Shown: in pieces, positions 3,737-35,687 of the stretch
How positions within the stretch are numbered: position 1 is the stretch's first letter
Layout: every line of letters starts with the position of its first letter
Source of the DNA: Candidatus Micrarchaeota archaeon
Lineage (GTDB): Archaea; Micrarchaeota; Micrarchaeia; Anstonellales; Anstonellaceae
DNA length: 64,000 nt
Direction of reading: 5' to 3'
Assembly (NCBI GenBank): GCA_026413965.1
Contig: JAOAJY010000002.1
Coordinates: forward strand, 12,273 to 76,272
The notes under the pieces: model-generated
Seen by the model: the letters and a program-made list of their open reading frames with translations, nothing else
Told to the model about the DNA's origin: nothing
Database searches by the model: none
Made by a program: the position numbers and the translations under genes

Positions 3737-4432
3737 TTATGACATGGTGGCGTCTAGGCAGTTGAGGATTATCGGCTTTGCTCCGTATTGCTTTTTTGGG
3801 ATTCCTGGCTTTCCGTCAATTATCTGCCTGTAATAGAATGTGACCGGAGGAAACTCAATCCAGCTTTTAATCTCAGGCACCTGAGAATCTGGTATTGCCA
3901 TGAGGCAGACTGCTTTCGGATTATATGGGCCATGGCCAGCAATGCCGTGTAAGACATTGTACCCCACGGTTATTTTCTCGCCAGGCGCGATGTAAATCCG
4001 ATCGTTTCTTTCTTGGAACCCTGTGCCATGCGGAGGGCCGACATATGCAATATAGGATCCAAGGTACTCTGGGCTGAAGTAAGCCCATGCCTTGCTTCTT
4101 ACCCCTTCCTCAGGATCTCCTTCATTATTCACATTTGCCTCCTTTGAGATTGCCAAAAGCTCAATTGTATAAGGCCCGTTGTTCTGCAAAACAAATTTCA
4201 CTCCCCCGTTGTTTTCAGGTCCTCCCAAAGTTGCATAAGCATACGCAGTTCCATCCACTATTGCAATCGGAGTCGCGGATCTCCAATAAGCCTGGTATTC
4301 TGCTCTTGCCGCATCTGAAGCCATGCCTGGAAAGAAAGCAAGAAGGGCAACTGAAACCAAGGCAATCACAAGCACAATTGAAAGAAGAACCAAGTATTCT
4401 GTCCCGCCTTGCCCAAAAGACTTCCCCTTCAT
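3737..4432 (-). CDS. Archaeal type IV pilin-like protein (class III signal peptide)
   Basis: From the internal ATG the N-terminus reads MKGKSFGQGGTEYLVLLSIVLVIALVSVALLAF: a short basic leader, a Gly cleavage context, Glu shortly after the putative cleavage site, then a hydrophobic helix. No other domain was recognised. Confidence 0.6.
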   Translation of the reverse strand: MKGKSFGQGGTEYLVLLSIVLVIALVSVALLAFFPGMASDAARAEYQAYWRSATPIAIVDGTAYAYATLGGPENNGGVKFVLQNNGPYTIELLAISKEANVNNEGDPEEGVRSKAWAYFSPEYLGSYIAYVGPPHGTGFQERNDRIYIAPGEKITVGYNVLHGIAGHGPYNPKAVCLMAIPDSQVPEIKSWIEFPPVTFYYRQIIDGKPGIPKKQYGAKPIILNCLDATMS

Positions 4433-4477
4433 GAGGGCATTTGGCAATAATGCATTTTTATAGATTTCCAAAAAAAG

Positions 4478-4630
4478 CGCTCCCATCGGGATTGCCAGGT
4501 TTTCCTTTTGAACCCGAGTTAAAGCCTTTCTCCAGCATTCCGAACGCTGTGAGAGGGCTCCGTCCTTGACCGGGTTGTCCGGCTTGCAAGCGCACAGTCG
4601 CGCTTGAGTCAGCCACTAGACTATGGGAGC
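4478..4630 (-). tRNA. tRNA-Glu(CUC) interrupted by three insertions (D-loop 43 nt, anticodon loop 37/38 22 nt, T-loop 15 nt)
   Basis: Minus-strand read: GCTCCCA-TA-GTCT-AGTGG[43]TCAA-GGAC-G-GAGCC-CTCTCA[22]A-GGCTT-TAAC-TCGGG-TTCAAA[15]T-CCCGA-TGGGAGC-G. Removing the three inserts leaves a 73-nt cloverleaf with all stems paired and anticodon CTC. There is a TATA-like box at about -28 and a T-run immediately 3'. Confidence 0.75.
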
Positions 4631-4652
4631 GCGAATTGGATTAGGAGAGAAA

Positions 4653-4662
4653 CCAATAAAAA
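4653..4662 (-). promoter_or_regulatory. TATA-like box for tRNA-Glu
   Basis: TTTTTATTGG on the minus strand, centred about 28 nt upstream of the tRNA 5' end. Confidence 0.5.
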
Positions 4663-4675
4663 CAAAATCGGGAGC

Positions 4676-5218
4676 CTAGGTTTCTTCCTCAAAAGATTTC
4701 GACAGATGCTTTGAGGAGATTTCCTGCATCTTCTCATAGGCTTTGTAATACCTCTGGGTTGCTTTGTAAAGGACGGCAGATATGCCAGCAAGAATGAAGC
4801 CTGGAAGCATTTTTGGGCTGCTGAATGCCTCAAGCGCCTCCCCTTTGGAGAAGCTCAGCAGCCCAGAGAAAAGAAAAGAGCACATGCCGGCATAAGCGGC
4901 TAGGAAAGCCGCCTCAAGCCTGTTTCTTGTGCGAACAAGGCTTCTGCCCAAAACAAAGAAATCCTCCACCAGCCTTTTTTCCTCCAAAGCCTCCATCTTC
5001 AAAATTTCCTGCGCATCCTCCTTGCTTATAGGCTGGGCTTTCCTTTCTGCCTTCCTTTCAAGCTCAGAGAACTTTTTCTCAAAAGCCTGGTACTCTTTGT
5101 ATTCCCTGAAAAATCTGCTCTTCACGCTTTCCTTCCCCAAATCCATGAATTTTCTGAAGCTTTCTGCCATCTGCCTTTTGGCTTTCTGGGCATTCACAAA
5201 ATTCCCTCCTTCCTGCAT
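4676..5218 (-). CDS. Hypothetical membrane protein
   Basis: 180-aa ORF with a charged, helical N-terminal half and two hydrophobic segments near the C-terminus (AAFLAAYAGMCSFLFSGLLSF, MLPGFILAGISAVLY). No family was recognised. Confidence 0.5.
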   Translation of the reverse strand: MQEGGNFVNAQKAKRQMAESFRKFMDLGKESVKSRFFREYKEYQAFEKKFSELERKAERKAQPISKEDAQEILKMEALEEKRLVEDFFVLGRSLVRTRNRLEAAFLAAYAGMCSFLFSGLLSFSKGEALEAFSSPKMLPGFILAGISAVLYKATQRYYKAYEKMQEISSKHLSKSFEEET

Positions 5219-5545: not shown

Positions 5546-5770
5546 TCAAGATGGAGAGATGTAAATCACAGAGTCGCCTCGCACAAGCACTGTCCCTATG
5601 CCTCGCTTGACTTCTCCGTCCTTCAGCTGCTCTGCTTTCTCAAGAACCAAATTCATATGCACATCATAGCTGACCATGATGCCCCTAAGCTCGGTTCCGC
5701 CTTTCAGCCCCACTATCACTGTGTTGTTGAGCGCGCCATTGAGCACATCAAAAGGTCTTTTGTCAGGCAT
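5546..5770 (-). CDS. Sm-like (LSm/SmAP) RNA-binding protein
   Basis: 74 aa with Sm1/Sm2 motifs ([26 protein letters not shown]...[11 protein letters not shown]). The stop codon lies 3 nt from the 5' end of tRNA-Ala. Confidence 0.9.
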
Positions 5771-7475: not shown

Positions 7476-8235
7476 ACTGCCCGCTTTTGAGCCCGAAATA
7501 TTCCCCCAAAATGCTGCCTGCAAGCCATCCTGCTATCGCCGCTGCCATGCCCACAAGAGCCATCTCAAAGCCGCTTTTCCACCAGCTTCCGACAGTTATC
7601 TTTGCTTTGTATGCCCCGACCGCAAAAAGCGCAGCAGTGGAGAGGGCAAGAGATAGCCCTACTGCCTCGCCCACGGGCGCAAATATGAATGGAATGAGAG
7701 GAAGAAGGGAGCCTAATATCGCAGAAAAGCCCACCAGGGCTGCTGAGCGGAGAGGCTCGCCTTTCTCCACAGGAGATAGGTTCAGCTCCTCGCTCATCAT
7801 GAAAGAAAGCCAAAGCTGCTTGTTGGAGGTTATGGCTTCAACCGCCTGCTTCAGCCTCTTTCCGCGCAGCCCCTTTTTCAGGTAAATCAGACGGACCTCC
7901 TCGCGCTCTATTTCAGGGAGGTTCTCTATCTCCCATTTCTCCTGCTCAAGCTCTCTCCTGTAATGGTCCTGCTGCGCCCTTTTTGAGGAGTAAGCCACTG
8001 CGGACATGGAGATGGACTCTGCGAAAGTTGCCACCAGCCCAGCCACCAGCACGAAAAAGCCGCTTGAAGTTGCGGAGGCAACCCCAAGCACAATGCCCAG
8101 CACGTTCACCAAGCCATCCTGCCCTCCCAGTATGATTTCCGCCAGGATTCCAGAAGGCTTGCTTTTCCTCTCCTCCTCCATATGCTGCTGGACTTTCCTG
8201 CTAAGCTCTGCCAAGTCCCGTTTTTTTGGCGGCAT
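7462..8235 (-). CDS. VIT1/CCC1-family iron/manganese transporter
   Basis: GGQDGLVNVLGIVLGVA motif, a central charged helical region, and C-terminal TM helices typical of the VIT1 family. Confidence 0.75.
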   Translation of the reverse strand: MPPKKRDLAELSRKVQQHMEEERKSKPSGILAEIILGGQDGLVNVLGIVLGVASATSSGFFVLVAGLVATFAESISMSAVAYSSKRAQQDHYRRELEQEKWEIENLPEIEREEVRLIYLKKGLRGKRLKQAVEAITSNKQLWLSFMMSEELNLSPVEKGEPLRSAALVGFSAILGSLLPLIPFIFAPVGEAVGLSLALSTAALFAVGAYKAKITVGSWWKSGFEMALVGMAAAIAGWLAGSILGEYFGLKSGQFISA

Positions 8236-13071: not shown

Positions 13072-13175
13072 GGGCCCATAGTCGAACGGCATTTTCCAGA
13101 AGGCAGGTGCCCGGCAATGGTTAAGACGTCTGCTTGACGTGCAGAAGACTGGGGGTTCGATTCCTCCTGGGCCCA
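13072..13175 (+). tRNA. tRNA-Val(GAC) with a ~30-nt insertion in the D-loop
   Basis: GGGCCCA-TA-GTCG-AACGG[insert ...CCCGGCAATGG]TTA-AGAC-G-TCTGC-TTGACGT-GCAGA-AGACT-GGGGG-TTCGATT-CCTCC-TGGGCCC-A. D-loop plus insert is 39 nt and the gene totals 104 nt. Confidence 0.8.
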
Positions 13176-13287
13176 TCCCTAGGGGGCGCTAAGAATATCC
13201 CAAAAGCCCCCTGAGGGCTCACCCCCAACATGCAACCTAAGGGTTTGTTGAGGGGCACTAAGAATAACCGAAAAGCCCCCTGCGTTG
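13176..13287 (+). repeat. 112-nt tRNA-trailer element, copy B (directly 3' of tRNA-Val)
   Basis: It starts at the nucleotide after the discriminator A and matches the reverse complement of 5296..5407 at 106 of 112 positions. It contains two direct sub-repeats, AGGGG(G)C-[18-nt A-rich loop]-GCCCCCT, flanking a 44-nt core that is identical in both copies. Confidence 0.9.
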
Positions 13288-13318
13288 AAAACTTTTCCAA
13301 AATAAGAATGCAAAAAAT

Positions 13319-33893: not shown

Positions 33894-33931
33894 AAGACAA
33901 CCTCCAAAGCCGCGCCAAGAAGGCAAGCCAG

Positions 33932-34004
33932 CGCCCCGGGCAGGATTCGAACCTGCGACCTATGGATTAACAGTCCACCGCTCTACCAGCTGAGCTACCG
34001 AGGC
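33932..34004 (-). tRNA. tRNA-Asn(GUU), uninterrupted
   Basis: GCCTCGG-TA-GCTC-AGCTGGTA-GAGC-G-GTGGA-CTGTTAA-TCCAT-AGGTC-GCAGG-TTCGAAT-CCTGC-CCGGGGC-G (73 nt). Confidence 0.9.
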
Positions 34005-34005
34005 A

Positions 34006-34112
34006 TGCCACAGGCCGGATTTGAACCAGCAACACATCGGTTTCAGAGGATGCTGAGCGCAGGCTCCTGCAAATCTTCAGCCGATTGCTCTCCCAGGTTG
34101 AGCTACTGTGGC
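34006..34112 (-). tRNA. tRNA-Phe(GAA) with a 33-nt canonical (37/38) intron
   Basis: GCCACAG-TA-GCTC-AACCTGGGA-GAGC-A-ATCGG-CTGAAG[33]A-CCGAT-GTGTT-GCTGG-TTCAAAT-CCGGC-CTGTGGC-A (107 nt). Only 1 nt separates it from tRNA-Asn. Confidence 0.85.
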
Positions 34113-34146: not shown

Positions 34147-34557
34147 CTAAACACTGCCGCCGAGAATCCTCAGCCTCTCTTTCATCATGCACTTGTCCAT
34201 CACCACAAGAAGCCCGGCGGATTCAGCCTTCTGCGCAGCCTCCGGGCTGACCACTCCCTCCTGCATCCACACCGCCTTCGCGCCAATCTCTATCGCCTGC
34301 TCCACAATCTCAGGCGCAGCAGAGGGCTTGCGGAATATGTCCACAACCTCCACTTTCTGCAAGACAGAGCGCAAGTCAGGAAAGCTTTTTTTCCCCAGCC
34401 ATTCGCTGATGCCAGGATTGACAGGAACCACCTCGTATCCGCTTTCCATCAGATGCTTGGCGACCGCAAAGCTTGGGCGCTCAGGGTTGTCTGATATGCC
34501 CACTATCGCTACAGATTTCATGCCGAGTATCTTCCTTATGGTCTCCTCCTCATTCAT
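34147..34557 (-). CDS. CoA-binding domain protein (YccU/YneT-like)
   Basis: VAIVGISDNPERPSFAVAKHLMESGYEVVPVNP is a Rossmann-like CoA-binding motif. Confidence 0.8.
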   Translation of the reverse strand: MNEEETIRKILGMKSVAIVGISDNPERPSFAVAKHLMESGYEVVPVNPGISEWLGKKSFPDLRSVLQKVEVVDIFRKPSAAPEIVEQAIEIGAKAVWMQEGVVSPEAAQKAESAGLLVVMDKCMMKERLRILGGSV

Positions 34558-35687
34558 GCCCTCACCAGCCTCAAAATCTCCTCATGCGGAGCATCCGCCC
34601 TTATGGCTGTGGGGCAAAAATGCGTCCGCGAGGCTTTGTAGCCAGCATCCCGAAGGCTCTCAATTGCCTTCTGGATAGGGATTATCGGGCGCAGGGTTTT
34701 TTTTGCAAGCGTGTGCAAATCCCAGTAGAAGCATGAGCCGACCGCAAGCTCCTCATTTATCGCGCCCAAGATTTTCCCAGCCTCCTCCCAGCCATGCAGC
34801 CCTCTTTCTTTGTTGAGCGAAAGCATCTTTTGGGCAATTTTTCTGTCCCAAAGCTCTCCCAGGTGCATGGGGCCTGCAATCTGAAGGGCTCCTGCGCAAG
34901 AGGGGCAGCGCTTGCCTTCCGGAAATCTTTCTGCCTGCCTCCAGCAGCAGGAAGGGCAGTAGGAGACAAACCCCAAGGATTTGATTGAGGAGGCTGCCTT
35001 CTGCGCGCCTTTTTGGACCAGAAATACAATCTTTATGTAATGGCGGTGCGAAAGGGTGAATATCGGGGTGGCTGAGAGGCTGAATGGGGCGAACTCCATC
35101 GCTGTCCTGCCTATAAGTATTCTTGCGGCATTCTCATGGCAAAATTCGTTGTTGAGCGGATTCGCTCCGTAATTTTTCAGGCATGCCAAAAGGTGCGCGC
35201 CGCACAGGACCGGCATGTCTGTCGCAGTGACGGAAAAATAGCTCTCCTTTGCCTTATGCAGCATATGGGCTGCGTCATGCAGGAAGGGCTGGGGAGAGCC
35301 GAACGGGTCCAGCTCAAGAAAATCAAAGGAATTTTCCCGCATGAACTTTTTGGCGTCTGCCCTGCTCACCTTGCACTCCAGATTGTTGAGCTTGGCATTC
35401 TTCCTTGCGCATGCGGCTGCCTTCTGCGAAATGTCTGACAGCGAAAGCTCATCCACATTGCGGTTCTCCAGCTTGTACCTTATCCCCCTTGCTCCGGTTG
35501 CGCACATCACATCCGCTACCGAAATCCTCTTGCCAATCGCGCCTGCGCAAAGGCTGGTCAAGTCGCGGCAGAGGCGCATGTGGGGGTTGTAGAAAACCCC
35601 GCCGCAAATCCTGATTTTGGCTTTGCCTTCCTCAATTTCCTGCCTGCTTCCCACGCTTGTCTTTTTGGATAAAGGGATAAAAACCAT
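34554..35687 (-). CDS. trm1: tRNA (guanine26-N2)-dimethyltransferase Trm1
   Basis: FYNPHMRLCRDL, SAM-binding VADVMCATGARGIRY, DPFGSP, and a C-terminal Cys cluster (CPSCC...CPSC). Confidence 0.85.
   Translation of the reverse strand: MVFIPLSKKTSVGSRQEIEEGKAKIRICGGVFYNPHMRLCRDLTSLCAGAIGKRISVADVMCATGARGIRYKLENRNVDELSLSDISQKAAACARKNAKLNNLECKVSRADAKKFMRENSFDFLELDPFGSPQPFLHDAAHMLHKAKESYFSVTATDMPVLCGAHLLACLKNYGANPLNNEFCHENAARILIGRTAMEFAPFSLSATPIFTLSHRHYIKIVFLVQKGAQKAASSIKSLGFVSYCPSCCWRQAERFPEGKRCPSCAGALQIAGPMHLGELWDRKIAQKMLSLNKERGLHGWEEAGKILGAINEELAVGSCFYWDLHTLAKKTLRPIIPIQKAIESLRDAGYKASRTHFCPTAIRADAPHEEILRLVRA

Follow-up and report, generated by a model that had tools for sequence, protein, structure and literature searches.

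[quoted passage not shown]

Disrupted tRNA genes in Micrarchaeota and other archaea

The closest described system is that of Candidatus Micrarchaeum acidiphilum ARMAN-2 (Fujishima et al. 2011, PMC3239211; Hirata et al. 2012, PMC3488258), in which 56% of the tRNA genes are disrupted and the non-canonical intron sites include 59/60; its ε2 EndA cleaves in vitro a 13-nt intron with a relaxed motif at 59/60 as well as a strict motif at 37/38 (PMC3239211). [quoted passage not shown] A similar picture comes from the Thermoproteales (Sugahara et al. 2008, as summarized in PMC4033280 and PMC4090602), whose tRNA genes carry up to three BHB introns, also at D- and T-loop sites, with relaxed HBh' or hBH motifs that rely on a broad-specificity endonuclease. 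However, according to these summaries the Thermoproteales are Crenarchaeota and hyperthermophilic, their enzyme is a heterotetrameric (αβ)2 endonuclease, and similar introns have spread among different tRNAs by transposition. The textbook archaeal intron lies at 37/38 within an hBHBh' motif of 3-4-3 geometry that uses the anticodon stem as its outer helix (Marck and Grosjean 2003, as cited in PMC4090602).

The gene described here is a tRNA-Glu(CUC) gene with introns at 15/16, 37/38 and 59/60, found in a 64-kb stretch of DNA that was analysed as a whole and is called the window below. The neighbouring PurQ has its best matches, at 73-75% identity, among proteins of Candidatus Anstonellaceae and Micrarchaeia archaeon, and the Pfam content of the window includes the typical archaeal genes Cdc48, RLI/ABCE1, RFC, Hjc and Orc1/Cdc6; judged from these two features, the host is a Micrarchaeota (DPANN) archaeon. 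The original prediction had named mainly the Thermoproteales, with a few other archaeal lineages, as context; the host belongs instead to Micrarchaeota, for which both disrupted tRNAs and an ε2 endonuclease of broad specificity have been published (PMC3239211, PMC3488258). The locus shares with ARMAN-2 the phylum, introns at 59/60, the coexistence of strict and relaxed BHBs, multiple introns per tRNA, genes missed by scanners, and very short T-loop introns (13 nt in ARMAN-2, 15 nt in tRNA-Glu of the window). In contrast to ARMAN-2, the window host represents a different, Anstonellaceae-like lineage of Micrarchaeota. The main text of the ARMAN-2 work (PMC3239211, PMC3488258) does not describe a tRNA-Glu(CUC) with introns at these three positions. 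The three-intron layout is unusual, yet it is already documented for Micrarchaeota and reveals no new mechanism; what the locus adds is an extension of the link between Micrarchaeota and heavily disrupted tRNAs past the ARMAN-2 family to an Anstonellaceae-like lineage.

The tRNA-Glu(CUC) gene and its three introns

As the original prediction had it, the 153-nt stretch is a tRNA gene; it lies on the minus strand (no strand had been given), the T-arm motif standing near the 5' end of the stretch when this is read on the plus strand (Table 1). It is very probably a functional tRNA-Glu(CUC) gene with protein-spliced BHB introns at all three positions. Presence and absence of introns among orthologues, the BHB motifs and ARAGORN all agree with the core of that prediction, a tRNA-Glu(CUC) with one canonical and two non-canonical introns. 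The spliced product is identical at 75/75 positions to the intron-less tRNA-Glu(CUC) of three related sequences (L013, L015 and L041; L numbers denote the sequences compared), and chance is therefore ruled out. ARAGORN types this 75-nt sequence as tRNA-Glu(ctc), and the Rfam model for tRNA, RF00005, gives the intron-less L013 copy 61.1 bits. All stems that had been listed are present (acceptor GCTCCCA/TGGGAGC, D GTCT/GGAC, anticodon GAGCC/GGCTT and T TCGGG/CCCGA), whereas the mature length is 75 nt, as in the intron-less orthologues, and not the predicted 73 nt. Once spliced, the anticodon loop has 7 nt (C U CUC A A), among them U33 and, at 37, a purine; G73 is the discriminator, and the gene does not encode CCA. 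Exon 1 holds the acceptor 5' strand, U8 and A9, the D-stem 5' strand, and A14 and G15. The exons are collinear, all four within 153 nt, so the gene is neither split nor permuted. The precursor has a minimum free energy (MFE) of -67.6 kcal/mol, below all 200 dinucleotide shuffles (z = -4.8), and in its unconstrained MFE fold the acceptor stem encloses the whole structure, which includes the HBh' pairing of the D-loop as well as the BHB of the anticodon.

Table 1. Coordinates in the 64-kb window of the tRNA-Glu(CUC) gene, its parts and flanking signals, and of further tRNA genes and repeated elements
Feature	Coordinates	Strand	Size and position	Sequence or remark	Basis
tRNA-Glu(CUC), complete gene	4478..4630	-	153 nt	four exons, three introns	orthologue parse, ARAGORN on spliced form
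Exon 1	4616..4630	-	15 nt, positions 1-15	GCTCCCATAGTCTAG	orthologue parse and sequence
Intron 1	4575..4615	-	41 nt, 15/16, D-loop		BHB scan, MFE fold, orthologues
Exon 2	4550..4574	-	25 nt, positions 16-37	CCCGGTCAAGGACGGAGCCCTCTCA; anticodon CTC at 4553-4551	orthologue parse
Intron 2	4528..4549	-	22 nt, canonical 37/38		BHB scan
Exon 3	4507..4527	-	21 nt, positions 38-59	AGGCTTTAACTCGGGTTCAAA	orthologue parse and sequence
Intron 3	4492..4506	-	15 nt, 59/60, T-loop		BHB geometry, orthologues
Exon 4	4478..4491	-	14 nt, positions 60-73	TCCCGATGGGAGCG	orthologue parse and sequence
TATA-like box	4655..4662	-	25-32 nt upstream of position 1	TTTTTATT	orthologue flanks
T7 run	4470..4476	-	starts 2 nt past discriminator		sequence
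tRNA-Ala(GGC)	5542→5408	-		missed by ARAGORN and Rfam	
Repeated element after tRNA-Ala	5406→5292	-	~115 nt	near-identical to copy after tRNA-Val	
tRNA-Val(GAC)	13072-13175	+		missed by ARAGORN	
Repeated element after tRNA-Val	13177-13290	+	~115 nt	near-identical to copy after tRNA-Ala	
tRNA-Phe(GAA) and tRNA-Asn(GUU)	33931-34112	-		one nucleotide apart	

Every position pair in the gene was scanned for a BHB, that is, a 4-bp helix H between two 3-nt bulges, together with an outer helix h and an inner helix h', cleavage being placed after the second base of each bulge. All three junction pairs of tRNA-Glu lie in a BHB-type motif. The best-ranking motif of the gene is that of intron 2, CUCU[CA/c]agcguu ... 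aaugcu ggag[aa/A] (bulges in brackets, cuts marked by slashes), a strict hBHBh' with H 4/4, h 6 and h' 6 that matches the textbook arrangement; the insertion predicted at 37/38 is exactly there, with the predicted length. The motif of intron 3, UUCA[AA/a]gg aaaa cc uggc[aa/U], has the 5-bp T stem as h, just 2 bp in h', and H 3/4 with a U54·c mismatch. Here too the 15-nt insertion sits precisely where it had been placed (TTCAAA/.../T), and orthologues carry introns at the same site. Worked through by hand with this geometry, placements at 57/58 and 58/59 would leave the mature sequence unchanged, yet 59/60 alone forms a BHB. The scan also returned an internal BHB with its 5' site after minus-strand base 46 and its 3' site before base 69 (H CUUG/CAAG, h' of 5 bp), which was rejected as its excision wrecks exon 2 and the D stem.

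The motif of intron 1, GUCU[AG/u]ggcu ... agcc ggac[aa/C], is a relaxed HBh' with H 4/4, h' 4 and h 0, in which a GGAC inside the intron mimics the D-stem 3' strand and pairs with the D-stem 5' strand GUCU; an 8-bp distal hairpin (caagcgcg/ugcgcuug) follows within the intron. The D-loop insertion had been read as 43 nt after GG, a reading that leaves a 73-nt tRNA with the D-loop AGUGGUCAA, keeps all stems unaffected and is likewise typed as tRNA-Glu(ctc) by ARAGORN. However, its boundaries give no BHB, as H would be UAGU against ACCC, and the intron-less orthologues read ...GTCTAGCCCGGTCAAGGAC..., which fits the 41-nt excision alone; we consider a 43-nt intron highly improbable. Intron 1 is fixed at 15/16, between A14-G15 and C16, because no other boundary yields the intron-less orthologue sequence, and the mature D-loop is accordingly AGCCCGGUCAA. 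The earlier boundaries thus missed by 3 nt on the 5' side and by 5 nt on the 3' side, more than the ambiguity of 1-2 nt that had been allowed for.

The ribozyme core of group I and group II introns comprises hundreds of nucleotides, and the contacts of G18 and G19 with Ψ55 and C56 belong to the established tertiary structure of tRNA. It is extremely unlikely that the three insertions are self-splicing introns of these groups or expansions kept in the mature RNA: at 15-41 nt they are far too short for the former and match no Rfam family at E ≤ 10, insertions retained in the D and T loops would break the tertiary contacts, and the BHB motifs sit exactly at the tRNA-Glu junctions, which argues against either form of this idea. 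We infer instead that the three introns are removed from the precursor.

Intron content of the orthologues and its probable evolution

In three relatives (L001-L003) the tRNA is not kept beside purQ, and orthologues were therefore sought by exon DNA patterns, the exon-2 pattern against a genome collection and the exon-3 pattern against a metagenome collection. Among the 37 genome matches, 34 are tRNA-Glu genes, nearly all from Micrarchaeota MAGs, and the other three are chance matches in a Methanoregula MAG, a Bdellovibrionales MAG and Segatella salivae. Parsed against the four exons, 24 copies are complete and share the acceptor stem, including that of the window and L041, which repeats L013. 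These orthologues, from more than 20 Micrarchaeota species, have zero to three introns at the same three sites and exons that are identical or nearly so. Introns are absent from L005, L013 (= L041) and L015; the D-loop intron stands alone in L008 and the 37/38 intron alone in L029, L036, L039, L043 and L044; D-loop and 37/38 introns occur together in L012, L017, L022, L023, L030, L031, L034 and L040, and 37/38 and 59/60 introns in L011 and L018; all three are present in L006, L025, L032 and the window. Wherever an intron occurs in a complete orthologue, the expected junctions fit this BHB geometry. One orthologous tRNA with zero to three introns at fixed sites in more than 20 species makes a compact natural series on the evolution of BHB introns, covering intron gain, retention as in the D-loop intron, and whittling down as in the 22- and 15-nt introns of the window.

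The D-loop intron is present in at least 13 complete orthologues, and is here inherited within one orthologous tRNA, in contrast to the spread among different tRNAs summarized for the Thermoproteales (PMC4033280, PMC4090602). When eight distinct D-arm precursors are aligned, four pairs of its distal hairpin show changes on both sides (9 cells). Pairing in the structure amounts to 97.6% and falls to 27-41% if the partners are shifted by 1-3 columns; at 15/16, helices H and h' are invariant among the eight and carry no covariation information. Introns at 37/38 range from 19 to 145 nt among the orthologues, the 22 nt of the window being the second shortest, and in most of them the pairing of h' is kept while its sequence differs. 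The 22-nt intron shares the ends cagc...gctgSagaa with introns of 73-145 nt in relatives, and the 15-nt intron shares the end ...cctggYRaa with introns of 37-81 nt at 59/60 (L006, L011, L018, L025 and L032), all of which have H 4/4. From these shared ends, both short introns of the window look like deletion derivatives of the longer introns of relatives, a feature in which intron 2 would differ from canonical 37/38 introns.

A sequence upstream of position 1 is kept as TTTTTAT(T/A) at the same distance as the TTTTTATT box in most orthologues, among them L023, L025, L031, L022, L032, L040 and L034, suggesting that this box would serve as the archaeal promoter element (TATA box). T-rich tracts follow the tRNA-Glu gene in nearly all orthologues, and the T7 run of the window is likely an archaeal transcription terminator. 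A scan for bacterial promoters and terminators, which is not applicable to archaea, found nothing. These signals bear on whether the gene might be a decaying pseudogene from which not all insertions are removed, a working tRNA-Glu(CUC) being supplied by another copy in the genome. Such a second copy is possible outside the 64-kb window, and the 15-nt T-loop intron, with its H mismatch and 2-bp h', has the weakest motif of the three. However, all 75 exon bases match the intron-less genes of other species while the introns differ in sequence and have become shorter, neither the conserved promoter box nor the conserved terminator run is disrupted, and the three-intron orthologues in L006, L025 and L032 are each apparently the sole CUC gene on their contig stretch. 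We therefore regard a pseudogene as unlikely, and a functional gene with three BHB introns as the better reading.

Two further arrangements were seen around the orthologues. In L008, L012, L017 and L011 the opening 8 nt of the tRNA, GCTCCCAT, occur a second time 43-49 nt upstream of position 1; the two copies are separated by a hairpin-rich insert of ~45 nt, and promoter-like sequence precedes the first. Read as a fourth intron, this insert gave no convincing BHB at any of ten positions, 0/1 to 9/10, which are all the placements that yield the same mature sequence. Downstream of tRNA-Glu(CUC), a second CCCGATGGGAGCG, a Glu 3' exon, occurs in L013 (~4830-5000), L015 (~400-480), L041 (~2680-2850) and L017 (~7560-7620), preceded by inverted copies of a repeated element; it could belong to another Glu gene, one whose T-loop intron is large, or to a split arrangement.

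This repeated element has two near-identical copies in the window, which start 1 nt past the 3' ends of tRNA-Ala and tRNA-Val and consist of two hairpins, CCCTAGGGGG-N20-CCCCCTGAGGGCTCACCCCCA...; the palindrome-ended consensus is CCCTAGGGGG-N~20-CCCCCTRA.GG.TCACCCCCA. An nhmmer profile of its first half found 12 copies in the sequences compared, all at tRNA junctions: 1-2 nt past tRNA 3' ends in the two window copies and in tandem copies of L017 (7037, 7118), as the 5' part of the tRNA-Glu 59/60 intron in L002/L003 (12619), L011 (981) and L032 (913), and inverted beside a Glu 3' exon in L013 (4987), L015 (461), L041 (2832) and L017. Rfam gave no match for the element, and the advantage of its fold over those of shuffled sequences is only slight (z -1.4 to -1.8). 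We tentatively suggest, as a possibility that we hold to be less probable than its opposite, that the tRNA-Glu T-loop introns at 59/60 derive from this mobile, palindrome-ended structured element. If so, the 15-nt T-loop intron of the window would be a deletion remnant of an element insertion, and the clade would keep successive snapshots of the gain, spread and decay of BHB introns.

Proposed processing, scanner behaviour and other interrupted tRNAs

In archaeal tRNA splicing, EndA cleaves both bulges, an RtcB-type ligase joins the exons, and CCA is added afterwards. We propose that tRNA-Glu(CUC) is processed along these established lines. Transcription would start just past the TTTTTATT box and stop at the T7 run, giving a 153-nt precursor that would display each pair of splice sites as two 3-nt bulges around a 4-bp helix. 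At 37/38, bases 32-35 of the anticodon loop would pair with the intron in the strict hBHBh'; at 15/16, the D-stem 5' strand GUCU would pair with the GGAC decoy of the intron in a relaxed HBh' that has no outer helix; and at 59/60, T-loop bases 54-57 would pair with the intron while the T stem serves as outer helix. The archaeal splicing endonuclease EndA would cut each bulge behind its second base, the four exons would be joined by an RtcB-type ligase, and CCA would later be added to the 75-nt tRNA.

Motifs that lack the outer helix are described as needing a broad-specificity enzyme of the (αβ)2 or ε2 type in the treatments of PMC3488258 and PMC5829648. A broad-specificity enzyme would be needed here because the 15/16 motif is relaxed, and it is reasonable to expect a relaxed-specificity endonuclease in the host, as the original prediction had implied. 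By lineage, a three-unit ε2 EndA like that of Micrarchaeum (ARMAN-2) is most likely the enzyme. A protein search with an ARMAN-2 EndA query, made of segments from the PDB alignment, yielded 1,415 homologues. Nearly all of the best 120 measure 380-395 aa, these 120 span three units, and many of them are labelled Micrarchaeota, Micrarchaeia or Micrarchaeaceae. Full-length three-unit homologues of about 385-390 aa are thus abundant among Micrarchaeota-labelled proteins. Four 'Micrarchaeia' EndA proteins were traced, and all come from assemblies other than those with the multi-intron tRNA-Glu. In the window itself, 60 of the 64 non-overlapping ORFs of at least 100 aa gave no PF01974 or PF02778 match, the other four being 101-129 aa long, and tblastn of the M. 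jannaschii EndA (query checked against PDB entry 1A79) against the 64 kb gave no match.

That standard scanners miss such a gene had been anticipated, and both ARAGORN and Rfam indeed miss the precursor. ARAGORN, run on the 64-kb window, matched only tRNA-His and tRNA-Asn; Rfam at the gathering score found four tRNAs in the window and none at 4478-4630, and a permissive scan of 4300-4800 (E ≤ 10) gave just two chance-level matches to unrelated families. ARAGORN returns nothing for the precursor or for the precursor minus the D-loop intron alone, and mis-types the gene as Ser once both non-canonical introns are removed. Micrarchaeota MAGs annotated with such tools will seem short of essential tRNAs, and the seemingly absent tRNAs distort inferences on completeness and codon usage for these MAGs.

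The window has six tRNA genes, of which four are interrupted (Glu, Ala, Val and Phe), and scanners also missed or mis-placed Ala-GGC and Val-GAC. The tRNA-Ala(GGC) has G3·U70, a 31-nt intron at 37/38 (BHB with H 4/4, h 5 and h' 3) and a 32-nt T-loop insert (TTCGAA/.../T) with a relaxed motif only; ARAGORN types its spliced 72-nt form as tRNA-Ala(ggc). For tRNA-Val(GAC) the Rfam match is marginal and mis-placed (13107-13175, 29.3 bits). Its 31-nt intron at 15/16, GUCG[AA/c]ggcauuu...aggugcc cggc[aa/U] (H 4/4, h' 7), shares its HBh' architecture with that of tRNA-Glu, the D-stem 5' strand pairing with an intron decoy, and its spliced 73-nt form is typed by ARAGORN as tRNA-Val(gac). The tRNA-Phe(GAA) has a 33-nt canonical intron; just upstream of the tRNA-Phe/tRNA-Asn pair lies the gene for Trm1, the N2,N2-dimethylguanosine tRNA methyltransferase (34554-35687).

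Two ORFs beside these tRNA genes were judged by eye. The one upstream of tRNA-Ala, at about 5550-5770 on the minus strand, reads like an archaeal Sm-like protein. The one just downstream of tRNA-Glu, at 3737-4432 on the minus strand, has a TATAAAAA box of its own (about 4453-4446); from its second Met it reads MKGKSFGQGGTEYLVLLSIVLV... and looks like a pilin-like protein with an archaeal class-III signal peptide.
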